64,000 nucleotides of DNA from positions 96,828 through 160,827 of the forward strand of contig DAIDAG010000066.1 of NCBI GenBank assembly GCA_027310725.1, written 5' to 3'. The notes below the pieces were generated by a model. It was not told the DNA's origin, did not search any database, and was given only the letters and a program-made list of their open reading frames with translations. The DNA is from Sideroxydans sp. Lineage in GTDB: Bacteria; Pseudomonadota; Gammaproteobacteria; Burkholderiales; Gallionellaceae. The translations under genes were made by a program, and so were the position numbers. Positions 9,321-32,953 of this stretch are shown here, piece by piece (position 1 is the first letter of the stretch; each line of letters begins with the position of its first letter).

Positions 9321-10001
9321 ATGGAAATGCCTAGATTACAGAGAACCATTGCGGAGATAGGGCACCTGGCAGGCTGGTATGGCTATCTTCCTAAAGACCA
9401 CACGGATTCAACAGCGCAAATCATCGCGTGGGCTGAGGAACTTGAAGAAAAGTGGCTCAGTTACCAGAACGAAAATTGGAAAGAGACCGTTGTAGCGTTC
9501 GCTCGCGGCAAGATGTTCAACGAAGTTAATCGCAAGAACGCCTCGTTCGGCAACACCAACCCAGCCGGTATTGATGCTGTTGTGAATCGATCCAGGCAGG
9601 GGCTGACGATGGTGGATATGCCCAATCCCTTCTTTTATTGTGCCGGCGCGTGCAGGTCGCCGGTGTCTTTCCTGTCATACGACCTCTGCGTGAACGATGT
9701 TGCTGGCGTTGAAATCAAGGCGTGCCGCAGTGAGGTCGAGGATGGCGTGATTATCGCTGTCGAGGACAATGACAATCCCGAGTTTTTCGAGTTGTCCATG
9801 TATATCAGGGACGATGAAGATCCGTTTGCTCGAAAGATGCACATCGTCAATCTGCACCCGGAATCCTACGACATCGCAGTTGAATATGCGTCCAGGCTCC
9901 GCGACTTCGTTCAATCCAGCCAGTTATTTGGATTGGATCCGGTCGCGTTGATGGATGGATACAAATTTTCCAGGGAATCTACCCAAAGGAGCCGTCCATG
10001 A
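9321..10001 (+). CDS. Hypothetical protein
   Basis: RBS GGAGG, 226 aa, first gene of a coupled run. Confidence 0.7.
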   Translation: MEMPRLQRTIAEIGHLAGWYGYLPKDHTDSTAQIIAWAEELEEKWLSYQNENWKETVVAFARGKMFNEVNRKNASFGNTNPAGIDAVVNRSRQGLTMVDMPNPFFYCAGACRSPVSFLSYDLCVNDVAGVEIKACRSEVEDGVIIAVEDNDNPEFFELSMYIRDDEDPFARKMHIVNLHPESYDIAVEYASRLRDFVQSSQLFGLDPVALMDGYKFSRESTQRSRP

Positions 10002-10531
10002 GCACTGAAGTTCAGCAGATGCGTATCGTGACGATGCGCGTAGCCGTTCCAGCCGGAAGCGACGAAGAAGCCACGACCAAGTTGATCGATGTGCTTAACG
10101 CCGGTCGCATACATCCGCCGCAGACTCAGATGCTGGCCTGCACGCTTGCAAAAGAGCCGCTGAACAAGGCGTTTGCGGCAGGGGATTTTGAGCATCTTCA
10201 AGAAGTGCTGGAATATTCCCCAATCGCAATCCCGCTCGGGCAGGACTACCAGTTGGTCGACCTTGAGCATGGTGGGATGGCGGAGATCAAGTCTGGTGAA
10301 AACACCACATGGGTGGGTGTCAGCAATCCGAATCACGAAGATGGTGAACACGATGGTGCCATCTCGATTCAGATCGGGCGTTCTCAGGATGGTGTTGACG
10401 TAGATCTTTACGGCAGAGGTGCCGAAAACGAATCACTTTCCTCTTCGTTTGTTGATTACTCCGATGCGCTGGATGTGCAGAAGACAAACATGCCGTCGGC
10501 TGGCGACGCAAGTGCCGCGAAGCCGAAGTAA
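9998..10531 (+). CDS. Hypothetical protein
   Basis: ATGA overlap, 177 aa. Confidence 0.7.
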   Translation: MSTEVQQMRIVTMRVAVPAGSDEEATTKLIDVLNAGRIHPPQTQMLACTLAKEPLNKAFAAGDFEHLQEVLEYSPIAIPLGQDYQLVDLEHGGMAEIKSGENTTWVGVSNPNHEDGEHDGAISIQIGRSQDGVDVDLYGRGAENESLSSSFVDYSDALDVQKTNMPSAGDASAAKPK

Positions 10532-10548
10532 TCTACTGGAGATCGACA

Positions 10549-11373
10549 ATGAAAAATATCCTCAATCGGATCGACAATCTTGCCAAAGTGGCCGCGATGA
10601 AACGCCATCTTTCATCCCATCCCGATTGGGCTGAAAAGATCGGTAATCCTGAATTCTTTGACCAAGCGGTCATCAACAGCGGGTTGTGCGAATCTTTGAC
10701 CAAAACCCGCACTGAGTTCGTCGACTTCTTCCGCTCCAGCCTGAAATCTGCATTCACCGGTATCGACAAATTCGCGGTCAAGGCGGCGATCGGCAACGTG
10801 GTTGAGCATGCAAGGAACGAAGCGAGCTGGTTCCGTGATGGTGACGGAGCGGAGAACATCGAGAATGGCGATGACATCGCCAACGGGATCGGTCGAATCG
10901 GTGATCTGTTGGAATTATCTGAACTTGCTTGTGACGATCAGTCACTCGAAGTGCCGGGCAGCGCGCCAGAAGAAATATATGCGCCTTTCGACAGGCAAGA
11001 TCGTAACACCATGTTGGCCGCGCTTCGCTATTACCAACAGGAAGGGATGGGCAATCCAGCCGTCCGTAGCGATGTGATTAACGAGATCGCAACGGACGGC
11101 GATACCGATGTATCGATGGACGATAGCGGTATTGATGACCTGTGTGAGCGCATTAATACCGCACAACAGCCGCGCGCGCTGGTCGTAATTTTCGGCGGAA
11201 ACGCTGATTATGCGACCGATAAAGGTGTTGATCTGGAGGTCTTTGATTGGGACAACTACAACGCTGGAGACCGTGATCAGCGTGTTCCTGCGCATTTTGC
11301 GGATCTGGCAGATTTGTTCCACAACATCCCGCTCGAAGGTCAGGATGAGGTTGTGTCGGACAAACCGGTTTGA
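10549..11373 (+). CDS. Hypothetical multi-domain protein
   Basis: RBS GGAG; the C-terminal domain is shared with the next gene. Confidence 0.7.
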   Translation: MKNILNRIDNLAKVAAMKRHLSSHPDWAEKIGNPEFFDQAVINSGLCESLTKTRTEFVDFFRSSLKSAFTGIDKFAVKAAIGNVVEHARNEASWFRDGDGAENIENGDDIANGIGRIGDLLELSELACDDQSLEVPGSAPEEIYAPFDRQDRNTMLAALRYYQQEGMGNPAVRSDVINEIATDGDTDVSMDDSGIDDLCERINTAQQPRALVVIFGGNADYATDKGVDLEVFDWDNYNAGDRDQRVPAHFADLADLFHNIPLEGQDEVVSDKPV

Positions 11374-11380
11374 GGTAAAT

Positions 11381-12061
11381 ATGAGTCAGGAAAAAAATCA
11401 TGGCGTGCAGCGAAGCGAAATTGAAGATGCGATCAATGACTTGACAGCAGGTATCAATGCCAACATCTGGTATGACGCAAGGCAGTATGGCGATGCTTCG
11501 GCGGAAGAGCGGATCAGCAAGACACATAATGCCATGCGCTTCGCCGTCGAAGCCTTAAAAAAGCTCGCAGCACTAGATCAAATGAGTGCGGGTAACGCGG
11601 TGCTGAATATTCTCCGCGTTTTGGTCGTGCTCGATAGAGACGGAATATCAAGCTTCAATGCTGACAGCGGCGTTGATGTCTTCGTTTATGATCCAATGAA
11701 TCCGAAAAAGGTGCCGCCCAACTTTGCTGACCTAGCTGAGGCCTATATCGACGTTCCAGTCGAGATTGATCTTGGCGAACAGGTTAATTCTGATTCGCTG
11801 GAACAAGCATTGACGAATGAAGACTGGAAGGTTCGTTTAGCCGCCATTGAGCGCATCGAGCGCGATAACCTGGATCTTTCCGAAGATCAGCACGAACGCG
11901 CGCTGACTGATGAATCCTGTTTGGTTCGCGCTGCCGCTGTCAAGCTCGGGCAATTGAGCCCCGCGCAGTACGACAGAGCGCTGGAAGATGATAGCCGCAC
12001 CGTAGTATTGGCGGCTCAAGAGACTCCCAGATCAATCCTGTGCATGAAGCCGATGCGATGA
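11381..12061 (+). CDS. HEAT-repeat-containing protein
   Basis: RBS GAGG, ATG 11381; three repeats of the form AL.DE...VR.AA. Confidence 0.7.
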   Translation: MSQEKNHGVQRSEIEDAINDLTAGINANIWYDARQYGDASAEERISKTHNAMRFAVEALKKLAALDQMSAGNAVLNILRVLVVLDRDGISSFNADSGVDVFVYDPMNPKKVPPNFADLAEAYIDVPVEIDLGEQVNSDSLEQALTNEDWKVRLAAIERIERDNLDLSEDQHERALTDESCLVRAAAVKLGQLSPAQYDRALEDDSRTVVLAAQETPRSILCMKPMR

Positions 12062-13467
12062 CAGAACTTCGTACCGACGCCTGGATCAAGGAACTCAAAC
12101 AGAACCGGGGAATCCCCCGGATATATCTGGATGGGCTGCAGGCCATTCGCACTGGGTTTGCCCCGGGCGACAAGTATGAAATCACCATCGACGGCGACCG
12201 GCTTATTCTGTCCGCAAACAAGGATGGTTCGCGTACTGTCAGCAAACGGAAGCAACGTGATGCCGTGTACCCTGTCATCGACATCAACAGCCGTGACTTG
12301 CTCGGAATGTTCGAAGGAATGAAGGCCGTCCGGATCATAGTTCGGGATGACAAGGTCTTTATCCTGCCGATCGCATCTGAATCGCACAAACTGGAGCGGT
12401 TGGCGCGTATCAAGCGCAAGGTCAGGAACGGCGAACCCATGAACATGGGAAGTCTGGCGCACGGCGGCGGCGTTCTGACGCATGCTATCCATGCTGGGCT
12501 GAAGGCGGCTGGTATCAAGGCCAATTTGATGTTCGCCAATGAGATCCGTGAAGACCTGATTGAACGGGCGGCACAATACAATGACGCGTGGTCTGAGGGC
12601 ACGCAGATCATGAACTTGCCGATGCAGGAACTCGCGCAGGACGAGTGGCTGCTCAAGCAGTTGCCCAAACTGGAGGTATTGGAAATGGGACTGCCATGCA
12701 GCGGGGCGTCGCGCGCCGGCAAGTCCAAGCGCGGCCTTGAGATGATGGAAGCTCACCCCGAGGTCGGTCACCTGGTTGTCCCTGCTCTGATCATCGTTGA
12801 TCGCGTCCAGCCGGTCTATATCACGCTGGAGAACGTCCCTGAGTACGCCGACAGTGCATCGGCTCAGATCCTGCGGCAGCAGCTCCGCGACATGGGATAC
12901 ACAACCTGCGAAGCCATTCTGTCTGGGCGTGATTTCGGGTGCCTGGAAAACAGGGTTCGTTGGTGCATGGTAGCGCACACCGCTGGTACCACGTTTTCCT
13001 TTGAAGACATTCGCCCCAAGGTCATGATCGTCAAGATGCTGGGAGAAGTGTTGAGCGATGTTCCGTTGGATGATCCATCCTGGCGCGAGGTTGCCTACCT
13101 GAAGAAGAAACAAGAGCGCGATCATGCCGCCGGCAAGGGATTTTCCATGCAGTTCGTGACGCCTGAATCCACCAGCGTCCCGACCCTCCGCAAGGGGTAT
13201 GCCAAAGGTGGTTCCACTGACCCGCGATTGAAACACCCTGTAAATCCTGAACTATCCCGGCTGCTGACCCCAGCCGAGCATGGCCGCATCAAGGGCATGC
13301 CGCCGGCGCTGAACTATCTTTCTCATCAGGAGTTGGGGCAGGGGATCGCGTATGAGCCATTCGAGAAGGTCGGACAGCGCATCGGCGAGCACATCAATGC
13401 GTTGCAGGAGGATTTTGAGGTCGCAACGAATAGCCCGAGACGTAGCCGGTCTTTTGGGATTGGTTAG
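12058..13467 (+). CDS. DNA cytosine-5 methyltransferase with N-terminal AbrB-like extension
   Basis: SLAHGGG (motif I variant), FANE, catalytic GLPCSGAS, ENV, ENRVR, RLLTPAEH.RIKG.P. Confidence 0.85.
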   Translation: MTELRTDAWIKELKQNRGIPRIYLDGLQAIRTGFAPGDKYEITIDGDRLILSANKDGSRTVSKRKQRDAVYPVIDINSRDLLGMFEGMKAVRIIVRDDKVFILPIASESHKLERLARIKRKVRNGEPMNMGSLAHGGGVLTHAIHAGLKAAGIKANLMFANEIREDLIERAAQYNDAWSEGTQIMNLPMQELAQDEWLLKQLPKLEVLEMGLPCSGASRAGKSKRGLEMMEAHPEVGHLVVPALIIVDRVQPVYITLENVPEYADSASAQILRQQLRDMGYTTCEAILSGRDFGCLENRVRWCMVAHTAGTTFSFEDIRPKVMIVKMLGEVLSDVPLDDPSWREVAYLKKKQERDHAAGKGFSMQFVTPESTSVPTLRKGYAKGGSTDPRLKHPVNPELSRLLTPAEHGRIKGMPPALNYLSHQELGQGIAYEPFEKVGQRIGEHINALQEDFEVATNSPRRSRSFGIG

Positions 13468-13539
13468 AATAGGTGTTATACGCTTGACTATATATGTCGT
13501 GCGTATAACAATGTGGTGTCACTTTAGAGTCAAAGAATA

Positions 13540-14625
13540 ATGATCAAACGTCTACCGGAAAGCGCACAGACGCTCTATGCCGAATTGCTGCAAAAGTCTG
13601 CCATTCCTATCGAAGGCGGGGGTTCCTATGTTACCAAGAAGATCCGCGAACGTGTTTATTGGTATCACCAGACCATTACGGCTGAGGGGGTCAAGAAGCA
13701 GCATTATATTGGTGCCGATACCCCGGAGCTGCGTGAACAGATTGAAACTTTGAAGAGCGGAGGGGATGTCTCTGCGATCATCAATGCCAGAAAAAAACTG
13801 GTTTCCATGCTCGGCGCCGCTGGGGCGTTGCTGGAAAAAGGACGTTCTGCGCGCATCATCGATAAGATGTCACGTATCGGTCTATTTGAATCTGGTGGCG
13901 CAATGGTCGGGTCTTATGCATTCGCTTGTTACGGGAACATGCTGGGGGTCGAATCCGCCGCATCGTTACGAAGGACTGAAGACATCGATTTTTCAGTGGC
14001 AAGAACGATTGATATTGCGGTTCATCGCGACATACGAGCTGCACTACTGGATGTTGATGCCTCGCTCAAGGTGCCGGTACAGACGAATCCAGGAGTGTTT
14101 CCATTCGAGATGGTCTCCAAAGATGGATTCAAAATCGAATTTCTGACAACCAGGGAGTCGCCTTCTGATCGAGTTCCAGTCAGCATTGTCGAGTTCGGAG
14201 TCCATGCACAGCCGCTTGAGTTTATGGACTACCTGCTTGACGATTTACAGGAAGCGGTTGTGTTGCACGGCGCCGGCATTCCGGTCAAAGTTCCAAACCC
14301 TGCAAGATTTGCCATTCATAAACTGGCCGTCTCGCAGATACGTCCAGTAGGCATGCAGACGAAGATCAATAAGGATATTGCGCAGTCCGCATTTGTGATT
14401 GAGGTTTTAGCGCAAGACAATCCCGGTTCCTTGTCTATCGCGATTGATGACGCCGTGGATCGCGGCGACGGCCTTTGGCATTTCGCTCAAAAAGGCGTCA
14501 ACAGGCTTCCGTCGGAGATTATTTCGATACTGACGGAAAGTGTTGGAGGACCATTGCCGCATGTATCGGTTGATACTGCCAGCGGGAAATTTGTGCGCGA
14601 CAGCACCATGCTCACGCTGAAGTAA
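13540..14625 (+). CDS. GSU2403-like nucleotidyltransferase-fold protein
   Basis: TLYAELL, YWYHQ..KQHYIG.D N-terminus; VGS.AF..Y, RTEDIDF, VPNPARFAIHKL, KDI.Q. Confidence 0.75.
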   Translation: MIKRLPESAQTLYAELLQKSAIPIEGGGSYVTKKIRERVYWYHQTITAEGVKKQHYIGADTPELREQIETLKSGGDVSAIINARKKLVSMLGAAGALLEKGRSARIIDKMSRIGLFESGGAMVGSYAFACYGNMLGVESAASLRRTEDIDFSVARTIDIAVHRDIRAALLDVDASLKVPVQTNPGVFPFEMVSKDGFKIEFLTTRESPSDRVPVSIVEFGVHAQPLEFMDYLLDDLQEAVVLHGAGIPVKVPNPARFAIHKLAVSQIRPVGMQTKINKDIAQSAFVIEVLAQDNPGSLSIAIDDAVDRGDGLWHFAQKGVNRLPSEIISILTESVGGPLPHVSVDTASGKFVRDSTMLTLK

Positions 14626-14680
14626 AGCACGCGTAATCGCGGTCATAAATAAGACTGATCGTTTTATAACTTTAAAATAA

Positions 14681-14699
14681 TGCAAGTATGTATCATGCA
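14681..14699. promoter_or_regulatory. TGCA-N11-TGCA operator
   Basis: TGCAagtatgtatcaTGCA just downstream of a TAAAAT -10-like hexamer, upstream of 14726. Confidence 0.65.
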
Positions 14700-14725
14700 C
14701 ACACATCAAGAAACGTCAGGCAGGA

Positions 14726-15364
14726 ATGATCATGGCTGAAAATACGACGGCAACTATCGATGGGCAAGACTTCCAGGTTCGGCATATACCAGCGCCCGAA
14801 TCCAGATTTGTCATTTATGGTGTATTCGATGAATCCGATCAGGAGATTTCGCGCGCGGCGCGCTCCGACGTAGCTATCGCCAATGCACGCATCAACATTC
14901 TGTCCTGCAAGCCTCACCATGAGCTGACATTTGAAGAATTTAGCGAGATCGCGCTGATCATTATGGTTCGTGCGGGGCAGGGCAAGTCGGGGAATGCCAC
15001 GTCCGGCAAGATCCGCTATCTGGTCGATGATTTGTTTAGTTGGCAAGACAATCTTTTTGCCATTCGTGCCGAGGCTAATCGCTGCTATGAGAAGGCAGGA
15101 TACGCGAAGCAGCATGCCGACGGTGATCCTGATGTGTTGCCGCGTGACAAGTGGGTGTCGCAGTTCATGGATAGTGTCCTGACTTGTCACGAGTCATGCG
15201 ATGTAGTCACGACCAGCGCAACCGAAATTGGACGGCCATTTATTCTGGTCAACACCAGATCGCTCGCCGCGTCGTTGAAAAAAGACAACCTGCTCCGTTT
15301 GGGTTACGACCACTACGCGCCGCTTCCTGAACAAACATCTCCTGTTATGAAACAAAGAGGGTAA
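14726..15364 (+). CDS. Hypothetical protein
   Basis: 212 aa, first gene of a three-gene run. Confidence 0.65.
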   Translation: MIMAENTTATIDGQDFQVRHIPAPESRFVIYGVFDESDQEISRAARSDVAIANARINILSCKPHHELTFEEFSEIALIIMVRAGQGKSGNATSGKIRYLVDDLFSWQDNLFAIRAEANRCYEKAGYAKQHADGDPDVLPRDKWVSQFMDSVLTCHESCDVVTTSATEIGRPFILVNTRSLAASLKKDNLLRLGYDHYAPLPEQTSPVMKQRG

Positions 15365-15366
15365 CG

Positions 15367-15795
15367 ATGAACGACAAGAATTCAGCCTTGCAGATTGCAA
15401 CGGCTGCAGCCTTCATGATGGAGGGCTTGCACGATGCCGGATATAACGACTGTATCGCGGCGTGGGACAAGGGTTGCATAGAGATGGTTCAGAGCATTGT
15501 CAGCTATGCGCCGCTGGTCAGCCGCTTGCTTGATGCACTTGAAAAGCAGGACTTCCCGGGTGTCTTCGATTACGAAGTCTCAAGCCCCTTCGGGAAATGG
15601 TTCGGTGATTACATCCTTGAACATGGGGACGAGCCGCCGAAGCAGGATGCTTGCTCCTGGCTCTCCAAAGAAGTCGAGTCATTCTTTACACAGAAAGAGA
15701 TGACTGCACCTGAAGTCGCCGAGATCCATGCGGCCATTCATGAGGTGGTCGCGACGGAATTGGCGACGGCTTCCACATCGGGGATGAAACCATGA
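15367..15795 (+). CDS. Hypothetical protein
   Basis: RBS GAGGG, 142 aa. Confidence 0.7.
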   Translation: MNDKNSALQIATAAAFMMEGLHDAGYNDCIAAWDKGCIEMVQSIVSYAPLVSRLLDALEKQDFPGVFDYEVSSPFGKWFGDYILEHGDEPPKQDACSWLSKEVESFFTQKEMTAPEVAEIHAAIHEVVATELATASTSGMKP

Positions 15796-16543: not shown

Positions 16544-16572
16544 ATTATTGCATGTGTATTACATGCAATAAT
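16544..16572. promoter_or_regulatory. Extended TGCA-N11-TGCA palindrome (best copy of the operator)
   Basis: ATTATTGCATGT-gtatt-ACATGCAATAAT, perfect arms of at least 12 bp. Confidence 0.75.
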
Positions 16573-16652: not shown

Positions 16653-17462
16653 ATGGCAGTCAAAAACGGCAACATGTTTGGCAAGGGTGGTAAGGGTTTC
16701 GATCAACACATCAAGCACGATCTGTTGACCGGTCGCATGTTTACCCAGGGCGTCATCGAAAACCAACTGAAGGCTCTGCGTCAGGAACTGAATGTCGAGT
16801 CCAAAGCATCCATGAAGGATCCGGTCTCGTATGCCATCCGCAAGGCACTGGCTGCGCAAGGCGTCCAACCGATCGATTCCGTGAGCGGTCATTTCGTGGG
16901 TTGTAAGGTCAGCGAGCGCGAAGCAGGCGATGGTGTGGCACGCGAAGCAGCTCTCCGCTTGCAGGATGCGGACAGCGGCGACATCGATACCGTGGTTCTG
17001 AACCTGAACAGCGGCGCCGGCCAGATGGCTATCCAGAAGCTGAAACACGTCGCTCCCGGCGAGCAGATCACGCTGAAGCTATTTTCCAGCGTGTCGGAAC
17101 CGGTGGAAGAAGGCGGCAAGACTTTCGTCAACCACTACGGTGCCATCAACCGCGCCGACGGTTCCAAAGTTACGCTGGACGACGATGCGAAAGTGAAGGC
17201 GCTGAACAAGCAACTGACCGATGAGCGCAACGCTTTGACGGCGAAGAAGGCATCCAAGGAACTGGTGAGCGCAACCATCAATTCCATCAAGGTCAATGCC
17301 GCTCTGGATACCGCCAAGGGAGTTGAAGCCAAGGTGGCCAACTTCAAGCTGAATGGTCATCCGCCTGCAACCAACGAGGCGTTCAGCGAGCAGGATACCG
17401 AGTTCGGTGATGCAGGTTTCGACAACGGCGGCGCCGGCAAGTCTGCGGCACCCAAAGCCTAA
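16653..17462 (+). CDS. Hypothetical protein with acidic C-terminal region
   Basis: Strong RBS GAGGAG, own operator and terminator, biased codon usage. Confidence 0.8.
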   Translation: MAVKNGNMFGKGGKGFDQHIKHDLLTGRMFTQGVIENQLKALRQELNVESKASMKDPVSYAIRKALAAQGVQPIDSVSGHFVGCKVSEREAGDGVAREAALRLQDADSGDIDTVVLNLNSGAGQMAIQKLKHVAPGEQITLKLFSSVSEPVEEGGKTFVNHYGAINRADGSKVTLDDDAKVKALNKQLTDERNALTAKKASKELVSATINSIKVNAALDTAKGVEAKVANFKLNGHPPATNEAFSEQDTEFGDAGFDNGGAGKSAAPKA

Positions 17463-17515: not shown

Positions 17516-17534
17516 TGCAATTATTATTTATGCA
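17516..17534. promoter_or_regulatory. TGCA-N11-TGCA operator
   Basis: TGCAattattatttaTGCA upstream of the helicase. Confidence 0.65.
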
Positions 17535-17589: not shown

Positions 17590-19167
17590 ATGGCGATCAG
17601 CTACGCAAAAGAGACATTTGACGACGAGCCTGCTGCCGTCAAACCAGCTCCATTGGTTAACTACATGCCTGAACAAAAGGCGATCATCGAGTCTCGTGAG
17701 CCTTCGATCAAGGTTTCAGCCTTTGCGGGTACGGGAAAGACGACCACTCTGGTCGGATATGCCAATAACCGCCGGAATGACAGCATGATCTACTTGGCTT
17801 TCAATAAAGCCATTCAGGAAGAAGCGGCGCGGAAATTCACCGGCAATGTCGAATGCCGCACCACGCACTCGATCGCCTACCAGGCGATGAACGTGCAGGA
17901 AAAGTATCTCAAGAAATTGTCTTTCGGTCTCAAGCCGTTCGACCTTGCCAAGCCGTTCGATGCGACCTACATCGATGCGGCGAATGCGATCCAGATCCTC
18001 AACAATTTCACATCCAGCGCCGATAGCCAGATCAGCGAGATCAATGCCATTGCGGCAAATATCAAGCCCGGCATGCGTCCCAGAGCCATTGCGCTGGCAA
18101 AGGAAGCATGGAAGCACATGATCGATCCTGACACCGACAAGGTGCCCATGACGCACGATGGCTACCTGAAACTGTTCCAGTTGTCCGGCAAGGCCATCGC
18201 CAAGAGAAATGGCGAGTTGTACAAGACCGTCCTGTTCGACGAGGCTCAGGATGCCAACCCGGTCACGACAGCGATGGTTATGGGACTGTCGGCCAACAAG
18301 GTTTTCGTTGGCGATCGCCACCAGTCGATTTATGCCTTCCGTGGCGCCAAGAATGCGATGGAGATGATGACGGGAATCGCTGAATACCCGTTGTTTTCCT
18401 CGTTCCGGTTTGGTCAGCGCGTCGCAGACGCGGCCAATATCATCCTGGGTTATACCCTGGGAGAGGAAAAGCACAGCCTGCGTGGGCTTGGCGGGCAATC
18501 GCGAGTCACCGGCGGCGGGAACGCCGCGCGCCACAGCGGCCAGATTGCGAAACTTGCGAGGACGAATGGCACGATCCTCGACATGACGGCTGAATGCATG
18601 GAGTCGAACGTGCCCTTCTACATTGTCGGGGGCACGGACTCGCTCAAGCTGAACCTGGTCATGGACACCTTCTATTTGTTCGCGAACCAGAAAGATCGGA
18701 TTGTCAACGCCCAGATCAAGCAGTTCGACAGCTTCGACGAGATGATGACATTGAGCGAAGAATCCGACGATCCCGAGTACAAGGCCATTTGCAAGGTCGT
18801 TAATCGCCACGAAGACAATACGCCCGTGTTGGTTGATTCTGTGAAGAAGGCGTGCCTGCCTTCTGCAAAGAAGGCTACTGTGGTTTTCTCGACCGCGCAC
18901 CGCAGCAAGGGACTGGAGTTCGATGCCGTGCAGCTACTCGACGACTTCACTTCGCTGACCCTGAATTCGCAGGACGAAGGCGTCGATATTCAGGAAGGCA
19001 ACCTGATTTATGTCGCCATGACGCGTGCGAAGAACACGCTTTATTTGAACGAGGATCTGGCAAATTTCCTTGAATGTCCGTCCCGCAACATCTTGCTTGA
19101 TGAGGCGGTCGGCATTAATGACCGCCTGCGCGGGGAAGTCAAGAAGGCCGTTTCGTTCAGCATCTGA
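17590..19167 (+). CDS. UvrD-like SF1 3'-5' DNA helicase
   Basis: AFAGTGKTT, YLAFNK, DEAQD, VGDRHQSIYAFRGA, SFRFG, STAHRSKGLEFD, YVAMTRA. Confidence 0.92.
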   Translation: MAISYAKETFDDEPAAVKPAPLVNYMPEQKAIIESREPSIKVSAFAGTGKTTTLVGYANNRRNDSMIYLAFNKAIQEEAARKFTGNVECRTTHSIAYQAMNVQEKYLKKLSFGLKPFDLAKPFDATYIDAANAIQILNNFTSSADSQISEINAIAANIKPGMRPRAIALAKEAWKHMIDPDTDKVPMTHDGYLKLFQLSGKAIAKRNGELYKTVLFDEAQDANPVTTAMVMGLSANKVFVGDRHQSIYAFRGAKNAMEMMTGIAEYPLFSSFRFGQRVADAANIILGYTLGEEKHSLRGLGGQSRVTGGGNAARHSGQIAKLARTNGTILDMTAECMESNVPFYIVGGTDSLKLNLVMDTFYLFANQKDRIVNAQIKQFDSFDEMMTLSEESDDPEYKAICKVVNRHEDNTPVLVDSVKKACLPSAKKATVVFSTAHRSKGLEFDAVQLLDDFTSLTLNSQDEGVDIQEGNLIYVAMTRAKNTLYLNEDLANFLECPSRNILLDEAVGINDRLRGEVKKAVSFSI

Positions 19168-19226: not shown

Positions 19227-19505
19227 ATGGAAATTACCACGCGATGCGTTGTAGAACCAGATGAGCCTGTTGCAAAGGAATATGCGTTCGATTGCAAGTT
19301 GATTGCGGCATTGCGCGTCAAGGCGAAATCGCAGAAAGAGGCGGAGGTAATGCTCCGTGAAGTTCTGGATGCCGCAAGCTGCAATGCAGGTTGTTGGTCA
19401 GACGGAAGTCCTGTTTTATTCGAGGCGAGTCTTGATGGTGAACCGCCCCTGTTCGAAGTGGATGGAGAACCAGAAAACAGGACAGCTAAATCTCTCAAGA
19501 TGTAA
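19227..19505 (+). CDS. Hypothetical protein
   Basis: RBS GGAG, 92 aa. Confidence 0.65.
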   Translation: MEITTRCVVEPDEPVAKEYAFDCKLIAALRVKAKSQKEAEVMLREVLDAASCNAGCWSDGSPVLFEASLDGEPPLFEVDGEPENRTAKSLKM

Positions 19506-24652: not shown

Positions 24653-24829
24653 TGAAAGGGAAATGATGAAGATCACTTTGACTGATGCCAATGGCAATAC
24701 TTCCGGGTTGCAGTGTCAATGAGGAACAGCAAGCCAAATTTCCTGCCCGACAGGATCTGATTCGTTTCATCGAGAGCACTGATAGCCCAGCCGCTTCCTC
24801 CGCGATGCGGATTTGACAAGGAGAGTCGT

Positions 24830-25388
24830 GATGGCGCAAACCGTATACACCGGCGAAAGCTATGTGATCAAAACCGAATTCAGCGGCCTGAACGTAATTA
24901 TTGAGCGCGTAGCCGATGGAAAGGATGTTCTTCTTCAGGGTGATGATGCGACTCAGTTCTTGACCGAGTATGACAACTGTCATGGTGACGACAAGCTGCT
25001 TCAGATTGTGTGCTCTGCTTATGACGAGGTGATGACTGAAAGGCGCTCTGGCGTCAATTCAGTTCTGTTGGTGCCAACGCTGGGTGAAACCATCCGGTGC
25101 ATGAAGGACGAAATTTTGTCCGATGTGCGCGCCGGTAAAGTTCCGGCTGATGTCAAATCGTTCAGCGAGCTTCACGACTATGTGGATGCCAATGAGTATG
25201 GTGGTTTTTGCAAAGAAGCATTTTCAGCCGCGTTGATCAATCACTTCGGCGGTCGCGATGAGAATGAGGGTATGCCAGATGGCATGATGAATTACACGAA
25301 CGATGCACAGAATGCCATTAACCAGTGGATCAAAGCTGGCGGAATTTCTGAGCAGCTTAAGGCGATTCCATCCGCGATGAAGATGTAA
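24830..25388 (+). CDS. Hypothetical protein
   Basis: RBS AGGAG before GTG/ATG near 24828-24833; contains SFSELHDYVDANEYGG. Confidence 0.7.
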
Positions 25389-25412: not shown

Positions 25413-26165
25413 ATGAGCAAAATGATCGTTGGAGCTGGTGCGTTCAAAGTGGTGAGTAATGATCGATTTGAACGGTTATTCAATTCCGCCGCAGCAACTC
25501 TTGGTGAATATCCAGGCGTATTGTCCAACAAAATTCTTTTCGGGCAGATCAAGCAAAGTGTTATTGCGAAATACGCTTTCCCGGACACAGGTAATGACCA
25601 GATCGACTTTGAGTGTTTGAGAGATGCCATCGAAGGACACATCATCAATTTTAAGGACAGTGAAGTGCTTGGACTTGATCAGGTTGGCTCTGTTATCCAG
25701 TGGAATGCCCATGAACTAGCCGCTTACATTAGCGGTGAAAAGCTTGAAGAATTCGGAATCGACAACCTCTCAGAAGTCGAGCGCATTCGGGTTGGCCTTC
25801 AGCCTTCGGTTGGCAACACGATTCCTGCTGGCGTTACCATACTGACATCTTGCGAATTCGGAGAGGTGTTCAGTGCAAATATACGGCACAAATCAGGTAA
25901 TCTGGGCAGTATGACAAAACGTAATCGTTTGGAAATTCGTAAAATCGACAAGTCTTTCCAGGTATTTTTGATCGAGCGGCGTTATGACAATTTGAAGGAA
26001 GAGGAACCAAAGGATGTTCGCCTGCAGCAAGAAGGCACATTCGAGAATATTGGTAAAGCTGCCGAGTTTGTAGGCCAGTATATTTCCGACTATCAGGGTG
26101 CAGTAATAGATGATCATGCCGAGGCTGTTGAAGTCGAGGCCTCATCAAATAAGATGAGGATGTAA
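25413..26165 (+). CDS. Hypothetical protein
   Basis: RBS GGGAG, 250 aa. Confidence 0.7.
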   Translation: MSKMIVGAGAFKVVSNDRFERLFNSAAATLGEYPGVLSNKILFGQIKQSVIAKYAFPDTGNDQIDFECLRDAIEGHIINFKDSEVLGLDQVGSVIQWNAHELAAYISGEKLEEFGIDNLSEVERIRVGLQPSVGNTIPAGVTILTSCEFGEVFSANIRHKSGNLGSMTKRNRLEIRKIDKSFQVFLIERRYDNLKEEEPKDVRLQQEGTFENIGKAAEFVGQYISDYQGAVIDDHAEAVEVEASSNKMRM

Positions 26166-26219: not shown

Positions 26220-26675
26220 ATGAATCAACGGGATTTGATCTTGAATCACTTGTGTTCAAGGATTTTTGAACGCAATGATTTTGAAAGCGCGGAAGCATTG
26301 ATCGATGCGATCAATATGGCATCGTCTATTCCTTCCGAAACACAGTGGAGGAAGCGCAAGGATGCATTCAACCAGATAGGCGAGAAAGCCCCAATGAAGA
26401 ATGGCGGCTATTGCCTGACCTATGAGGAAGTGCCGTCATTTCTGAATACGGAAACAGACGCTTTCGTAGAGGCAATGAAAAGCGAGGCCGCATCCAAACA
26501 AATGGTGGGGGCGACAGTCAAGTCACCTGAGAGCCTGCAGCAGCCACACAGGTTTTCGAGCGTGGTTCGTAATGACACCAAAGCGCACCTCGCGGTTTTT
26601 CGTGATAGCCGTTCAGCCAGCCAGGCGGGTGATCAGGTGCGCGAACACCTTGGCATGAAGCCTAGCGCGAAGTAG
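26220..26675 (+). CDS. Hypothetical protein
   Basis: RBS AAGGA, 151 aa. Confidence 0.65.
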   Translation: MNQRDLILNHLCSRIFERNDFESAEALIDAINMASSIPSETQWRKRKDAFNQIGEKAPMKNGGYCLTYEEVPSFLNTETDAFVEAMKSEAASKQMVGATVKSPESLQQPHRFSSVVRNDTKAHLAVFRDSRSASQAGDQVREHLGMKPSAK

Positions 26676-26777: not shown

Positions 26778-26981
26778 GTGGAAGCTGGACTGAGAATCAA
26801 GATGGATAATGCAGCATTCGAGGATGATCCCGGCGAACTTGCAAGAATTCTGCGGGATCTGGCCGACAAGGTCGAGAACGGCGTCACCGATGGTGACCAG
26901 TTCGTGGCGCGAGACATCAACGGCAACAAGGTCGGATCTCTGGAGATCGTGGCCGAGCCGCGTGCCGCGCACAAGATGTAA
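26778..26981 (+). CDS. Small phage/plasmid hypothetical protein
   Basis: RBS AGGAG; DNAAF...ELARILR.LA...RDINGNKVG. Confidence 0.65.
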   Translation: MEAGLRIKMDNAAFEDDPGELARILRDLADKVENGVTDGDQFVARDINGNKVGSLEIVAEPRAAHKM

Positions 26982-27014: not shown

Positions 27015-27650
27015 ATGGAAGCTAAATTAGATGCCGATCTAAATGCCGGGAATGCTTCTTTGCGCAATGCTGTTGGTGAAATTATTCATCGAATAAGCAA
27101 ATCATTGCCAGACATCAGGGAACCAATCAAGATGTACCTTGCTGGTGGCGTGGCAGTGAATTTCTATACTGGCTATCGAGCAACCGATGATGTCGATGCA
27201 TCGTTTTCGCACAAAATCATTTTGCCTAATGCCAACGAGCTGGTTGTCTCATACGATGACGAGAACGGCAAGCACAAAATGGTGTACTTCGATATGAACT
27301 ACAACCCGACTTTCGCTTTGATGCACCCTGATTTTGAGAAAGATGCTGCATTGGTCGAGGGAAATGAGTTTAAGGACGACAAAATCAAGTTGTATATCTT
27401 GTCCCCTGTTGATCTGGCGCTTAGTAAAGTTTCAAGATTAGAGGGTAACGACAGAGAAGACATAGCCGAGCTTGCAAAACGCAAATTAATTTCGTCGAAA
27501 GAACTGGAAGAACGTGCAGAGGAAGCACTTTCATATTATATTGGCAATCAAGCGATGTTGAGAGTGAACATTCAGGACGTGCTGGAGGTCATAGAGACGG
27601 TACAGCAGGGCTTGAATCATGGCATAAATGGAAAAGGATATGGGCGCTAA
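27015..27650 (+). CDS. Nucleotidyltransferase-fold protein (DUF6036/AbiEii-like)
   Basis: YLAGGVAV..Y...RATDDVD, LSPVDLALSK..R....DREDI. Confidence 0.75.
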   Translation: MEAKLDADLNAGNASLRNAVGEIIHRISKSLPDIREPIKMYLAGGVAVNFYTGYRATDDVDASFSHKIILPNANELVVSYDDENGKHKMVYFDMNYNPTFALMHPDFEKDAALVEGNEFKDDKIKLYILSPVDLALSKVSRLEGNDREDIAELAKRKLISSKELEERAEEALSYYIGNQAMLRVNIQDVLEVIETVQQGLNHGINGKGYGR

Positions 27651-27990
27651 TCCGTTTAACAAACAACAATTCAATGCCTACCGGGATTGGGAGCAATCCT
27701 TGGTGGAGTTTTTTGTGCGCGAAGCAAAAAAGCCGAACATGGTGAATTGGTTATCAATGGTCAATGGCGCGGACTCGCCGAGGTCAGTAGCGTATTCGGC
27801 CTTGCTTTTATCTAACCTTGTTAGCAGCAAGCCGAACTATACGGAATCTGCCAAGGCGTTATATTCCGTCTATGAGAGGCTTACTGAGCAAAGAGGCAAC
27901 GCCTCCGAATTTGAAGAATGGCTGCACTCTGATTGGCTGAACGTATCGCGAGTGGCAAATATGTTCAAGGCCGAATTGATGCACCACTAA
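27628..27990 (+). CDS. Hypothetical protein overlapping the NTase gene (possible partner)
   Basis: Overlapping ORF with the same AT-richer composition. Confidence 0.6.
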   Translation: MEKDMGANPFNKQQFNAYRDWEQSLVEFFVREAKKPNMVNWLSMVNGADSPRSVAYSALLLSNLVSSKPNYTESAKALYSVYERLTEQRGNASEFEEWLHSDWLNVSRVANMFKAELMHH

Positions 27991-28140
27991 TTTTTTTCCA
28001 TAACACTGGATTCTCGCCTATCCCACTAAGTTGCGCAAAATCGCAAACTGAATTAAATGGTTGGCCTGGATAGTCAAATTTTCAAGTAACATCTAGTCGT
28101 CCTTCTACCTCTTCCAGCGATATAAATTTCTTCGCACGCC

Positions 28141-28191
28141 TTGTCCGAAAAAAACGTCGGTGCTATAGTTGGTGCATAATTACTACTTGCA
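28141..28191 (+). promoter_or_regulatory. Sigma70-like promoter with downstream TGCA-N11-TGCA operator
   Basis: TTGTCC-N17-TATAGT (28141-28169) with extended -10 TG; operator TGCAtaattactactTGCA at 28173-28191. Confidence 0.65.
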
Positions 28192-28203
28192 CTAATTATA
28201 CGC

Positions 28204-29721
28204 ATGAGACTGTTTGTTGCAGAAAAACCTGATGTAGCAAGAGAGCTTGCAGCGTTTATCGGCAAGCGCAATAAGGCATCCCCCAAAAAAGAGGCTCGGT
28301 ACATTGAAGTAGGAGACACAATCGTAACCTGGGCGCGCGGGCATCTGCTTGAACAGGGAGAGGTCGATGACTACTTCCTCGACGTTCCCAGGACGAAAGA
28401 AAATTCCAGCCGTGGCCGTCTCTACTGGCAGCACGTGCCGTTACCCATTCTCCCCAAAAAGTTCTTGTACGTCCCCTCAAAAGAGGATTCCGACCGCTCC
28501 GCGCAACTCAAGGAAATCGGCAGGCTGATGAAGTCGGCCACTGATATCTTCAACGCCGCCGACCGTGACCGGGAAGGGCAACTGATCTTCGACGAGATCA
28601 TTGAGCATTTCGGAATTTCAGGAAAACCGATCAAGCGGCTGATCTTCTCGTCATTGGACGATGCGGCGCTGGAACGCGCGTTCAACAGCGCGGTAGATAA
28701 CAAAACGCCCGGCATCTTCAACATGGGTCTTGCGGCAAAGACGCGTGGGCAGGCCGACTGGCTAATTGGCATGAACGGCACCCGCGCCATGACGCTGGCA
28801 CACGTAACGCCGGCCAAGGGCGCCGGCTCCCTGAATGTTGGCCGCGCGATGACGCCGACGATGTCGGTTGTAGTGCGCCGTCACCTAGAGATTCTGAATT
28901 TCAAATCCTCCGCCTTTTACGTGCCAATGGTGGAGCTGCCCGATGGCACTGTTCTGGAGTGGAAAAAGCGCCTGGACGAAAGCGACACCAAAGGGCTGGA
29001 CGCCAACGGCAAGATCATCGATCGTGCGCTGGCCGAGCGTATCGTCAAGGCGATCAACGACGGTCTGGAAGGGGAAATTACCGAGGCCAAGTCCACCGAA
29101 AGGCGGGAGGAGCCACCGCTGCCGTTCTCCCTGCCGTCAATACAGTCCGAACTGTCCAAGAAATACGGGCTGACCGTAGAAGAGATCACGGAGGCGTGTC
29201 AGTCGCTCTACCAGAAGAAAATGCAAACCTATGTCGGTACCGATTGTCCATACTTGCCGGAGGCGATGCATGGAGAGGCATCGGATGTGCTGAACGGGCT
29301 AAAGGCGATGTTCGGCAAGGCCGTGAGCGGCACGAACGTAACGCGCAAGTATGGCTGCTGGAATGACAAAAAGCTGTCCGGCGAAGGCGGTGCCGCCCAC
29401 CACGGGATCATTCCGACCGGAATTAAGGGGTCAATCAGCTCGGAAGCAGAGCGGCTTGTGTACCAAGCCGTGTGCAACCGCTATATCGCTCAGTTCTATC
29501 CAGAACACCGTTACCTGGCGATTTCGCTCAAGGCAGCGTTTGGCGGTGCAACCGGTGACGAGTTCAACGCAACCGCCAAGGCGGTAATCTCAAACGGCTG
29601 GAAAGACGTGGAGGGAGAAGGCGATACGAACGAGGATCGAACCACAGACAATGATCGCACGGCGCCGGACAGCAAAGCTGGCGCGCAAAAACCGTCCGAT
29701 ATGGGCGGACGCAAAGGATGA
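28204..29721 (+). CDS. topB: DNA topoisomerase III, N-terminal part (TOPRIM plus catalytic Tyr region)
   Basis: AEKP, TWARGHL, AADRDREG, ADWLIGMNGTRA, VGRAMTPT, PPLPFSL, AQ-equivalent CQSLYQKK..TYVGTD, AHHGIIPT; ends before the GT..TR motif. Confidence 0.88.
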   Translation: MRLFVAEKPDVARELAAFIGKRNKASPKKEARYIEVGDTIVTWARGHLLEQGEVDDYFLDVPRTKENSSRGRLYWQHVPLPILPKKFLYVPSKEDSDRSAQLKEIGRLMKSATDIFNAADRDREGQLIFDEIIEHFGISGKPIKRLIFSSLDDAALERAFNSAVDNKTPGIFNMGLAAKTRGQADWLIGMNGTRAMTLAHVTPAKGAGSLNVGRAMTPTMSVVVRRHLEILNFKSSAFYVPMVELPDGTVLEWKKRLDESDTKGLDANGKIIDRALAERIVKAINDGLEGEITEAKSTERREEPPLPFSLPSIQSELSKKYGLTVEEITEACQSLYQKKMQTYVGTDCPYLPEAMHGEASDVLNGLKAMFGKAVSGTNVTRKYGCWNDKKLSGEGGAAHHGIIPTGIKGSISSEAERLVYQAVCNRYIAQFYPEHRYLAISLKAAFGGATGDEFNATAKAVISNGWKDVEGEGDTNEDRTTDNDRTAPDSKAGAQKPSDMGGRKG

Positions 29722-30086
29722 CCGATATGTTGTTGGCGACGGAAACGCCGTTCATCGGCAGGAAGAAGGGTGCGTTTGCAGGGGTACGGAACCGGGTTTT
29801 GCTGAGTCAGCAGCAGGAACGGATGACCCAGATCGCAGCTTTGATCGAAGCTGCCGTATCGAAGTTGGGGCACGATCCCATTGCGGTCAGCGATTTGATC
29901 GAAATTTCTAAAAAAGTGACGTACATGCTTGGGGCGATGAACGACATCATGGAAAGCGGTCGTTCTGGGGAGATCCACACAACTGATTTTGATGATGAAA
30001 ATTTGGACGCTTTTTTGAAAAACACATCAATTATTGCATCGATAATCGAATCACATTTACATAGACCCAAGGACGGTCAATCATGA
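29718..30086 (+). CDS. Hypothetical protein
   Basis: ATGA overlap with topB-N. Confidence 0.65.
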   Translation: MTDMLLATETPFIGRKKGAFAGVRNRVLLSQQQERMTQIAALIEAAVSKLGHDPIAVSDLIEISKKVTYMLGAMNDIMESGRSGEIHTTDFDDENLDAFLKNTSIIASIIESHLHRPKDGQS

Positions 30087-30310
30087 AATCAACGATGAAT
30101 TTTCTCAGGGTGCAAGTGGACACCGTCTTCGACCACGCGACCGCAGAACTTCAAGCCGGCAAGCAAATGCTGCAAAACGCTGCGCTGGCCGGACAATCGG
30201 CGATGAGCAGCTTTGTGGCCGATTTATCGATGAGCCGCAATAACATCGGCACCGCCATCGTTCGCTCTGCCGAAAAGCCCATCGATGACCGTCTGAAGTT
30301 GAGGGGATGA
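30083..30310 (+). CDS. Small hypothetical protein
   Basis: ATGA overlaps at both ends. Confidence 0.55.
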   Translation: MKSTMNFLRVQVDTVFDHATAELQAGKQMLQNAALAGQSAMSSFVADLSMSRNNIGTAIVRSAEKPIDDRLKLRG

Positions 30311-31185: not shown

Positions 31186-31187
31186 AG

Positions 31188-31925
31188 ATGGCAAATGCAC
31201 TCGACATCAGCAAGTTCGAAGTGGGAAGCGCGGTGCGCGGGCGAGCCTACGTGCGCGAAGGGAAGACGGTTCCTCCGCGCTACTTTGTCGAGGGTGACCT
31301 GATCCTGATCATGGATGACATCGGGCGCTACGCGAACATTGGTAAGGAGGATGCGGCAATCCTGCGCGAGAAGAACAGCACGGGCAGCGGCAAAGCCGGG
31401 ATCGGCACGGCCAGAACGCGCGGCGAGGTCATCAAGAAGTTGTTCGATGACGGGTTCTTGTACAAGGAAAAGGCCAAGGGCAAGAAATCGCCGATCGTGA
31501 TGCCTAGCGAGAAGAGCATCGCCCTCTACGAAAAGTTGTCGCAATGCGGCACTGCCAAGGTGCTGATTTCACCGGAGATGACGGCGAAGTGGGAAACCGG
31601 ACTGACGATGATCGAGCGCGGGGAGATCACGCCAGCTCAGTTCATGGATCAACTGTATAAGTTCATCATGCAGTTGACGACGGACATGACAGCCAATCCA
31701 ACCAACCCGTATTTCGGCAAGCCGCGCGCAGCCGCCGGCGACGGTACGGTCAAATCCAATTGCGACGAAAAGCATCCGAAGGACGGTCAGTTGTGCGACA
31801 AGTGCAAGGACGGTCAGTTGCTCACAATGAAGGTGGTCAAAAAGGAAAGCTCCGCGTTCGGCAAGCTGTACGTGAAGTGCGATAACAAGAAGTGCGATTA
31901 CTTTGGAGAGTTCATCAAACTATGA
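31188..31925 (+). CDS. topB: DNA topoisomerase III, C-terminal part with zinc ribbon
   Basis: KTVPPRYFVEGDL, GIGTARTRGEVIKKL, SPEMTAKWE..L..IE.G, CDKC...CDNKKCDY. Confidence 0.85.
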   Translation: MANALDISKFEVGSAVRGRAYVREGKTVPPRYFVEGDLILIMDDIGRYANIGKEDAAILREKNSTGSGKAGIGTARTRGEVIKKLFDDGFLYKEKAKGKKSPIVMPSEKSIALYEKLSQCGTAKVLISPEMTAKWETGLTMIERGEITPAQFMDQLYKFIMQLTTDMTANPTNPYFGKPRAAAGDGTVKSNCDEKHPKDGQLCDKCKDGQLLTMKVVKKESSAFGKLYVKCDNKKCDYFGEFIKL

Positions 31926-32389
31926 GCCAAAATGCGCAAAACGGTCAGGGCGACAACTCAGCGAACAGCGCAGTAGCTGTTGCCGAGAAGTGCATGTTCA
32001 GACCAACGATTGAAGAAATCATGGCTGAAATTTTTGCAAAATACAATTTTGCATTAGACAGCAATCCTATTTTGCCATCGGAGGTCTTTGCGGCTGATTC
32101 TTTCCTGCCGTTGTTTTCGTCTATTGCGATCAGCCGTGCTGAAAGCATCTTCGGTTTCCCGTTCTATATCGAGGAAATCGAAGACGAAAATGCACTGTTC
32201 GGCATGACGATTGCCCCCGAGTTTCCGTCCGCTGCGCCATTCCTGATCTACACGCTGCAGATGATGAATGTGGCGACGGATATTTTCGGGAGGGTTCCCT
32301 GCAAGATCGAGCTGGATGAGCTGTATGCATGGGCGACCAGCCGCGAATTGCAAGAGGCCGGGCTTCCATATTTGGGTATCAAACACTGA
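31922..32389 (+). CDS. IcmS-like type IVB adaptor/chaperone
   Basis: F.L....I...EVF....FLP, G......E.ENALFG and C-terminal LDELY align by eye with Legionella IcmS as I recall it (FYLN...DEVFSETGLLP...EGALLG...LDELMY). Confidence 0.6.
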   Translation: MSQNAQNGQGDNSANSAVAVAEKCMFRPTIEEIMAEIFAKYNFALDSNPILPSEVFAADSFLPLFSSIAISRAESIFGFPFYIEEIEDENALFGMTIAPEFPSAAPFLIYTLQMMNVATDIFGRVPCKIELDELYAWATSRELQEAGLPYLGIKH

Positions 32390-32401
32390 ACGGAGAGGAT
32401 C

Positions 32402-32953
32402 ATGATCAACTATGCGAAAGAAACTTTTGACGATGAATCGACAAGCAATAAGGCGGTATCGATTCGCGAATTGATGAACGGGGTCATGGCTACTGAAGAC
32501 GCGATGGAACAGCGGGAAGAGACACCCGCACCTCACGCGAAATACGTGCCGTATCTCAAGCCTGCGAAGAAGCGCACTGCTACGCCCGTCGAGCAGACCA
32601 CAGATGCCCCGTTGCCTGTCGCAAATGATCTGGTTTCGCAAGCGAAGGCGCGCTTGTCCGCGCTTGTTCAGCGCCGGGACCAGGCTACCGGCGACACCGT
32701 TTACTTGGAGCGCGATTCCGAGCGCGCTGTACTGCGTGACACGGGTTCGAAGATCTGCGTTACCGAGGACAAACCCTCTGACGAAGATATTCTGCTGATG
32801 CTGGTTGCCGCGCAGGAAAAGTTTGGCGACAAGTTCAAGGTGTTCGGTACTGACGAATTTGTCGAGCGTTGTTCGCGCATCGCATTGATGCATGATATAA
32901 AAATGCAGAATACGCAGCGCGAAACAACGTCCCGCAGCCCGAAGGTTTCCTGA
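32402..32953 (+). CDS. LPD7-like domain protein
   Basis: LRDTGSKI.V...DEDI...L..AQEKFG....V.GT.EF. Confidence 0.65.
   Translation: MINYAKETFDDESTSNKAVSIRELMNGVMATEDAMEQREETPAPHAKYVPYLKPAKKRTATPVEQTTDAPLPVANDLVSQAKARLSALVQRRDQATGDTVYLERDSERAVLRDTGSKICVTEDKPSDEDILLMLVAAQEKFGDKFKVFGTDEFVERCSRIALMHDIKMQNTQRETTSRSPKVS

Follow-up and report, generated by a model that had tools for sequence, protein, structure and literature searches.

A shared C-terminal tail on soluble accessory proteins beside a Dot/Icm machine in Sideroxydans, a candidate export label

A 64,000-nucleotide stretch of a Sideroxydans genome (assembly GCA_027310725.1, contig DAIDAG010000066.1, positions 96,828 to 160,827; hereafter the window) places genes of a Dot/Icm machine next to a series of unrelated proteins with similar C-terminal ends, which raises the question of whether these ends mark the proteins for delivery by that machine. 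A first-pass annotation had named 16 such ends between positions 9321 and 32953, and had proposed that a type IVB system injects the proteins into the recipient together with DNA. Our results indicate that the tail is real, but is carried by fewer proteins than first claimed, about one third of the soluble non-machine proteins. On sequence grounds, we consider it probable that the tail, on some 10-15 soluble accessory proteins, is a C-terminal export label for the co-transfer of establishment proteins in conjugation. The window is C36:96828-160827 of a 164-kb contig (C36) within a 3.0-Mb assembly that is 65% complete, with genes called by a self-trained script; coordinates without a prefix refer to the window, and other loci carry L numbers.

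The machine is extensively represented. C36 encodes DotA, DotB, DotC, DotD, DotF, DotG, DotH, DotI, IcmB/DotO, TraW/IcmX, DotL, DotM and DotN, with most machine genes to the left of the window, and the channel and ATPase set DotA, B, C, D, F, G, H, I, O and IcmX is that of the type IVB, or MPF-I (mating-pair formation), core. An IncI-like type IVb pilus cluster is also present. The matches are mostly significant, yet under equivalog cut-offs. The coupling complex DotL, DotM and DotN was recognised by NF041447 (E=5e-136, residues 24-688 of 840), NF033890 (E=1e-31) and NF038221 (E=1.5e-13), respectively. Within the window, all on the + strand, lie the DotN/IcmJ-like coupling-complex subunit (2038..2688, under the family cut-off), the IcmB/DotO (TraU) ATPase (6207..9248; homologues named IcmB/TraU; its own end is without the tail, at the 36th percentile), TraW/IcmX (34479..35819, NF033888, E=1.9e-20), DotA/TraY (36321..38453, TIGR04346, E=8e-73, above the cut-off) and a tailless IcmS homologue (31922..32389). 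For the last, a single-sequence search placed IcmS in the top PDB rows at E=0.27, and a four-sequence profile made with three relatives matched IcmS chains only (E=8.5e-6). A profile of three plasmid proteins matches IcmW (E=1.6e-5), and the IcmW candidate of C36 (72041-72538) is just 18-21% identical to them; a single-sequence search and Foldseek gave no match for this candidate, whose model was poor. The predicted complex of the IcmS-like and IcmW-like proteins, folded without alignments, scored 0.00, which is evidence neither way. LvgA, DotY and DotZ were not identified, though no search was aimed at them. The presence of a Dot/Icm machine beside the putative cargo is thus confirmed by profiles, from the DotA-to-DotO set through the coupling complex to IcmS.

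Whether the neighbouring C-termini are exceptional was assessed on the 26 called genes of the range 9321-32953. All 16 quoted C-termini sit at their coordinates. Judged by features chosen with the quoted list in view, a Met within the last six residues occurs in 11/26 range genes against 223/2434 host proteins (p=1e-5) and a hydrophobic-K/R-hydrophobic pattern in 8/26 against 102/2434 (p=1e-5), which upholds these two elements of the tail as first described; Ser/Pro/Ala richness, the third, is not significantly enriched (11/26 against 667/2434, p=0.074). A leave-one-out profile of the range C-termini outscored 300 of 300 runs of 26 host genes.

A motif was also derived independently, by expectation-maximisation on 565 C-termini from 17 other elements, namely three plasmids (99, 130 and 99 kb read) and 14 loci around homologues of the giant methylase-helicase of the window, which we take to be DarB-like; the background took in one third of the host proteins, and the element itself, its close relatives L008 and L010, the viral-contig loci L028-L031 and the short loci L009, L011, L022 and L025 were excluded from training. 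No element-specific motif was trained because close relatives are scarce: an IcmB search returned two matches at 27-37% identity in 300 genomes of the family, no orthologue was found in 400 genomes of the order, which gave six weak matches (E ~1e-4), and the nearest named relative of the element, locus L010 of a Gallionella metagenome-assembled genome (MAG), is 73% identical. The motif approximates [AP][ASP][RAG][PM][RAK][PAM], set at a variable distance of 0-3 residues from the end, and takes the form of a Ser/Pro/Ala linker followed by basic residues alternating with Met, Pro or hydrophobic ones. With a pass set at the host 95th percentile (5% of host genes), it is found in 9/26 range genes (p=4e-6), 1/39 machine genes and 0/8 defence genes, the last as the first-pass annotation had said, and no run of 26 consecutive host genes contains more than five. 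The expected excess over host C-termini was therefore observed. Five of seven accessory genes of C36 outside the range also pass, including an LPD1 protein (PLRLRA) and ends SPGMKLR and PSMKM. When each element was left out of training in turn, 15/51 non-machine and 0/35 machine genes passed in our element, and 96/386 and 11/113, respectively, in 11 other elements pooled, where internal segments of the same proteins passed in 66/1141 cases. Scoring K and R alike left the pass counts unchanged.

The set of tailed proteins differs in part from the one first named. Six of the 16 ends pass (15795, 19505, 24816, 25388, 26165 and 26981) and ten fail, among which 15364, 26675 and 32953 come close to passing (84th-92nd percentile) and 12061, 13467, 14625, 19167, 24652, 27650 and 30310 are host-like (11th-77th percentile), 30310 reaching the 87th if K and R are equated. 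Passing tails that had been overlooked comprise four in the range (10001, 10531, 17462 and 29721) and five elsewhere on C36. The proteins that pass, all on the + strand, are one of 226 amino acids (aa) with no Pfam match (9321..10001, TQRSRP, 98.9th percentile), one of 177 aa (9998..10531, SAAKPK, 99.7th), one of 142 aa (15367..15795, TSGMKP, 99.8th), a predicted oligonucleotide-binding (OB)-fold protein (16653..17462, KSAAPKA), one of 92 aa (19227..19505, AKSLKM, 95.3rd), a 43-aa open reading frame (ORF) that was missed by the gene caller and hence falls outside the 26 (24685..24816, SSAMRI), one of 185 aa (24831..25388, PSAMKM), one of 250 aa (25413..26165, SNKMRM, 97.4th), one of 67 aa (26778..26981, RAAHKM, 99.6th) and the N-terminal half of a split type IA topoisomerase (28204..29721, DMGGRKG). 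The 185-aa protein has a partial, 66% identical homologue without the tail on host contig C58. The OB-fold protein is weakly similar to single-stranded-DNA-binding proteins (SSBs), which are its best Foldseek rows (E 2.5e-3), and its model has a pLDDT of 72.6, with the disordered acidic end (residues 236-269, the last 34) below 50; a VIA search with this model gave helix matches only (best Z 7.0), and 5/5 members of its family score over the threshold. An ESM Atlas search gave unnamed, mostly phage clusters.

The claim that a methylase, helicases and nucleotidyltransferases form part of a tailed payload did not survive in the window, where by domain and motif scans UvrD, the methylase, both nucleotidyltransferases and the giant all fail. 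Ordered along the + strand, the proteins without a passing tail are a 226-aa protein with weak HEAT repeats (11381..12061, quoted end CMKPMR), a C5 cytosine methyltransferase (12040..13467, PF00145) whose orthologue in a Cupriavidus gilardii plasmid ends STRVRM, an NTP_transf_8 nucleotidyltransferase extended beyond its last helix (13540..14625, PF12281), a protein without assignment (14726..15364, near miss PVMKQRG, 88th percentile), the UvrD-like helicase (17590..19167), the 1704-aa DarB-like methylase and strawberry-notch helicase (19538..24652), a 151-aa protein (26220..26675, near miss GMKPSAK, 84th), a DUF6036 nucleotidyltransferase (27015..27650), a 75-aa protein with a borderline tail (30083..30310, RLKLRG, 66th-87th), the C-terminal topoisomerase half (31188..31925) and an LPD7-domain protein (32402..32953, near miss SRSPKVS) whose close relatives end APRLKI. 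In genomes negative for DotA, by a search with a positive control, 19/29 nucleotidyltransferase homologues end at the last helix, ten are extended and one passes, a weak control given that the window copy itself fails.

Ends of this kind might be by-products: fast-evolving accessory genes may finish in low-complexity sequence under little selection, with GC bias and the picking of examples adding to the apparent excess. The letters A, P, R and G of the motif are GC-favoured, 10-14% of genes pass in two chromosomes at 57-67% GC, and unsupervised fitting finds structure in host ends too (0.22-0.33 against 0.70 log-likelihood per sequence). Nevertheless, the element has 53% GC, below the host's main contigs, internal segments pass at no more than 6% overall, and machine genes reach 10% as against 25%. 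Moreover, entire families keep the tip behind linkers that cannot be aligned (10/10, 5/5 and 7/8 members), and a terminal Met is found in 10% of tailed proteins and in 1% in chromosomes, so that we give this explanation a small probability. A cause at the DNA level (shared cassette, gene overlap or ribosome-site spill-over) was rejected, since the tails are written in varying codons, no similarity continues beyond the stop codon and 24-150 bases separate the four KM/RM ends from the next gene. The tail is a protein feature and not a DNA repeat.

Membrane-like segments are present in 11/163 tailed and 93/394 untailed element proteins, and in 22/80 host proteins that score high by chance. The tail is thus concentrated at the ends of soluble proteins that are not part of the machine, as is expected of a type IV secretion system (T4SS) signal, and its restriction to such proteins agrees with a role in export. 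The final position is dominated by Pro, Ala, Met, Arg and Gln, and in the single protein modelled (16653-17462) the tail is predicted to be disordered. ClpX signals include ssrA- and MuA-type motifs, and a free, unstructured basic-hydrophobic end also suits these. The main rival explanation, which we regard as unlikely, is that of a protease tag, of ClpXP, Lon or Tsp type, which keeps early establishment proteins short-lived in the new host with no injection at all. It would agree with the ends of DarB-like homologues, of which 38/109 finish AA and 66/109 finish A, and with ArdC of R388, which acts when expressed in the recipient and not in the donor (PMC7213743). However, Ala-Ala ends occur in just 15/163 tailed element proteins and in none of the passing tails of our element, and the drift of the tip between lineages would fit a reader encoded by the element better than a conserved host protease.

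A short linear motif at the C-terminus, preceded by an acidic linker, is typical of docking, and the tail might likewise hold proteins on a common intracellular partner, such as a scaffold or replication hub, in the manner of the SSB tip and without export. Acidic residues 10-20 positions upstream of the tip are somewhat enriched (0.18 in tailed against 0.14 in untailed proteins; 0.15 in chance high scorers, p=0.053), as docking would predict. Yet no candidate scaffold was found besides the coupling complex, and the acidic end of the OB-fold protein is extended by the tail and thus not free, which makes docking very improbable.

The tail, which we favour as an export label, recurs in other genera. 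A Cupriavidus plasmid has the near-identical tips PAMKM, PRMRM and TMKM, 8/11 members of the UvrD family pass, and 53/109 distinct ends of DarB-like homologues do so, as against 7/118 IcmB homologues. The tip varies by lineage, being K/M-rich here, R/P-rich elsewhere and absent in Acinetobacter. The clearest array was seen in a Chloroflexota-labelled MAG (L012:3258-20403), where from icmB on most genes end in basic tails (PKMKR, PRLRAA, SRPRMR).

Cargo and machine share a further feature. The palindrome TGCA-N11-TGCA with an AT-rich spacer, a pattern derived from our element, occurs 19 times on C36 (14 intergenic) and 24 times (4 intergenic) in the other 2.86 Mb; cargo operons have it upstream, as do the operons of icmB, pilin and dotA, and L008 and L010 contain it too. 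In the window it is located upstream of the icmB-containing operon (5863..5881), ahead of the first cargo operon (9266..9284), upstream of a cargo operon (14681..14699), of the OB-fold gene (16549..16567) and of uvrD (17516..17534), ahead of the split-topoisomerase operon (28173..28191) and within the end of the LPD7 gene, upstream of the traW-dotA operon (32889..32907, also in L008 and L010), with further copies at 60498 and 63646 and at C36:443, 61578, 64811, 73087, 78061 and 96336. The distribution suggests an operator-like element by which cargo and transfer operons would form one regulon, compatible with activity in donors or solely in new recipients; a common operator would equally suit zygotic induction and, with it, a protease tag. 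Genes that could encode its regulator are found at C36:64847-65386 and, for AlpA, at C36:525.

Several points weigh against the tail as an export label for co-transferred establishment proteins. The ten quoted tails that fail include every enzyme named; the motif is GC-biased, with 12/88 genes of a 67% GC chromosome passing; and the elements share ancestry, so that p-values are overstated. The 12 closest DarB-like homologues all fail, and in 99 of the 288 kb of the Acinetobacter plasmid pALWED1.1 only one of 67 ORFs passes, a set that includes its LPD1, UvrD and DarB-like proteins. Signals of F-system substrates are varied and also internal (PMC11288057), and for the related plasmid pVM82 secretion of three reporter fusions was seen neither into the medium nor into HeLa cells (PMC13664640). 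Finally, no MOB-P, H, F or Q relaxase (PF03432, PF07514, PF08751, PF03389) was found in this 65% complete genome, on a contig that is open-ended and with MOB-C, V, T and M not searched genome-wide. Accordingly, the label varies between lineages, or the named enzymes rely on a different signal. What stands of the delivery proposal is a machine with DotL, DotM, DotN and IcmS and a tail confined to soluble non-machine proteins; the named enzymes have a weak motif or none.

Because no known relaxase was found, the DNA co-transfer part of the proposal rests on relatives. Plasmid pALWED1.1 is self-transmissible with no known relaxase reported (PMC8490738); it carries the same marker genes as our element and transfers at up to 8e-3. 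Conjugation mediated by Dot/Icm homologues has also been reported for Acinetobacter pAB3 (PMC10746170). A distinctly less probable explanation is that the machine translocates only protein, and that tailed proteins are effectors against competitor bacteria or eukaryotic cells, the latter as in Legionella. The lack of a known relaxase, the presence of an IcmS homologue and the two nucleotidyltransferases, which might be toxins, are in line with it, as are the killing of bacteria by Pseudomonas putida IsoF with a type IVB system (PMC9519443) and the case that the pVM82 authors made against conjugation from the missing relaxase (PMC13664640). On the other hand, such cargo as can be recognised acts on DNA (methylases, helicases, topoisomerase, OB fold, LPD1/LPD7), the pilus is IncI-like, both nucleotidyltransferases fail the motif, and pALWED1.1 transfers with the same markers.

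Tyrosine-recombinase relaxases exist (MOB-M; PMC12857230). A tyrosine-recombinase-like gene (L005:12942-13772, that is, C36:88942-89772) adjoins dotI or dotD in our element and in the four plasmids read, and does so throughout the family, pALWED1.1 included; its product here is without the tail (10th percentile), and homologues occur in 159 plasmids, 19 typed conjugative and 140 not, a proportion that the protein-only alternative could also claim. It is the best candidate for the lacking relaxase, and the adjacent intergenic gap is a possible oriT. The topoisomerase offers another lead. Its N-half, with the Toprim domain and the catalytic Tyr in YVGTD, is separated in the window from the C-half, which lies next to icmS; L008, L010 and the C. 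gilardii plasmid have a split enzyme too, with 37 kb between the halves in the plasmid, and N-halves are found in L013 and L014. All split enzymes read Y[VI]GTD where the usual one has YPR[TS]D, and the C-half reads GTARTR in our element, L008 and L010, a pair of changes shared by the intact L023 enzyme. Type IA topoisomerases have an active-site arginine, which may here have been relocated to the C-half. The N-half tail coincides with an internal LPxM[KR] motif of intact enzymes and may be its remnant, as a by-product would be. Elements with an intact topoisomerase often carry a second, shortened and tailed one, which in both plasmids read (L035:36627-38201, - strand; L037:32479-34035) lies in the icmS-dotM-dotL cluster; it has homologues in 60 plasmids, 46 of them typed non-mobilizable, and is a candidate pilot protein. 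A more far-reaching idea, which we find possible but rather doubtful, is that the family represents a stage between IncI conjugation and the effector machine of Legionella. It would then be a conjugation system with IcmS that injects 15-20 labelled proteins and has a repurposed enzyme as its relaxase, be it the tyrosine-recombinase-like protein by dotI/dotD or a tailed type IA topoisomerase, here the N-half with the catalytic Tyr, that would pilot the DNA.

With regard to its surroundings, no tRNA and no terminal overlap were found on C36, so that the element may be a plasmid or an integrative and conjugative element. Elsewhere on the contig are integrases and an AlpA gene, along with a cobalamin-type cluster, metal-efflux genes and a defence island. 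The cobalamin-type cluster (C36:7780-27228; L001, L002) opens with siroheme synthase and is apparently for cobalamin synthesis, as judged from the part of its genes scanned; a nickel/cobalt transporter and a Cus-type efflux system lie near it, on the contig that also holds the transfer machine. A phage-like module (window 30-1624 and C36:95348-96112), comprising a 270-aa ORF without assignment, a DnaC/IstB-like ATPase and an AntA/KilAC antirepressor, is possibly the replicon of the element. A staphylococcal-nuclease-like gene and a PAPS-reductase-domain gene (4135-5840) are located within the tra operon ahead of icmB, and the proteins encoded at 10549-11373 and at C36:65410-65979, the second directly downstream of dotL, have a common C-terminal domain. 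The defence island (40189..59169, + strand) contains an SNF2 helicase, DUF4391, a type III restriction-modification system with a PLD-domain gene, an SbcCD-like pair, and an OLD-family ATPase/UvrD pair, presumably Gabija-like.

Taken together, the export label suggests the following course of events. Cargo would be made together with the machine; the free tail, consisting of an acidic stretch, a Ser/Pro/Ala linker and a basic-hydrophobic tip, would be recognised by DotL/DotM, with IcmS serving optionally as adaptor; and the coupling complex would thread tailed proteins into the recipient during conjugation. Once delivered, the SSB-like OB-fold protein, LPD proteins, the topoisomerase half and many unassigned proteins would help the incoming DNA establish, and in relatives UvrD and DarB-like enzymes would be delivered for the same purpose. 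Hardly any natural substrate of a Dot/Icm system carried by a plasmid is known, with none for pXCV183 or pVM82 (PMC10432156, PMC13664640), and the literature is at odds on whether relaxase-less elements conjugate, with pALWED1.1 doing so and pVM82 judged not to. A tail that can be scored provides ranked candidate substrates, mostly without assigned function, in a family whose hosts include Pseudomonas, Xanthomonas and Cupriavidus. If the proposal is true, a single label would send a large set of proteins across during conjugation; novel establishment and anti-defence proteins could be sought among them, and the effector system of Legionella might plausibly have arisen from such a state.

C-terminal T4SS signals and protein co-transfer are already established (PMC7251119, PMC8406263, PMC11288057, PMC5512222), and this known principle limits how surprising such a label would be; for this element family, no description of the tail was found in the literature searched, supplements lying outside that search, and PMC10488154 concerns another plasmid group with no bearing on the tail. 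The closest machine is Legionella Dot/Icm, which is of the same class and whose DotL, DotM, DotN and IcmS have homologues here (PMC7251119). Its effector signals (the hydrophobic end of RalF, E-block, FxxxLxxxK) resemble the tail in their place at the extreme C-terminus, a hydrophobic residue near the end and acidic residues upstream, and the RalF signal is IcmSW-independent (PMC7251119). In contrast to the Legionella system, the present element is mobile and has a type IVb pilus, its cargo appears DNA-directed, and its tip is basic with Met/Pro. Conjugative plasmids of the IncI group have a MOB-P relaxase, and none was found in our element. Substrates of the Agrobacterium VirB/VirD4 system reportedly share a positively charged C-terminal signal, the Vergunst consensus. 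The likeness to the tail lies in the basic residues of a free C-terminal end, and the tip here is shorter (~5-7 residues), alternates with Met/Pro and would serve a type IVB instead of a type IVA machine; this signal class is cited in PMC11288057. SSB, PsiB, Par proteins and SogL are passed to recipients by the F and ColIb systems (PMC8406263). As with SogL of ColIb-P9 and SSB, PsiB and ParA/B of F/pED208, the role proposed for our cargo is to assist single-stranded DNA on its arrival, and one tailed protein has an SSB-like fold (PMC8406263, PMC11288057). Whereas F signals are varied, C-terminal or internal, here one motif is found on many unrelated proteins. Among plasmids, pALWED1.1 (PMC8490738), pXCV183 (PMC10432156) and pVM82 (PMC13664640) have the DarB-like and tyrosine-recombinase-like genes in common with the element, the first and last with no known relaxase reported in the available text, and pALWED1.1 differs in that the basic tail is nearly absent from the 99 kb examined. 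The cargo itself is best compared with the polyvalent proteins of Iyer et al. 2017 (PMC5512222), which likewise include LPD1, LPD7 and methylase-helicase giants and were predicted in that work to enter together with the DNA. Its available text names no signal that would target them; the tail would fill this role, and would add small unassigned proteins to the delivered set.

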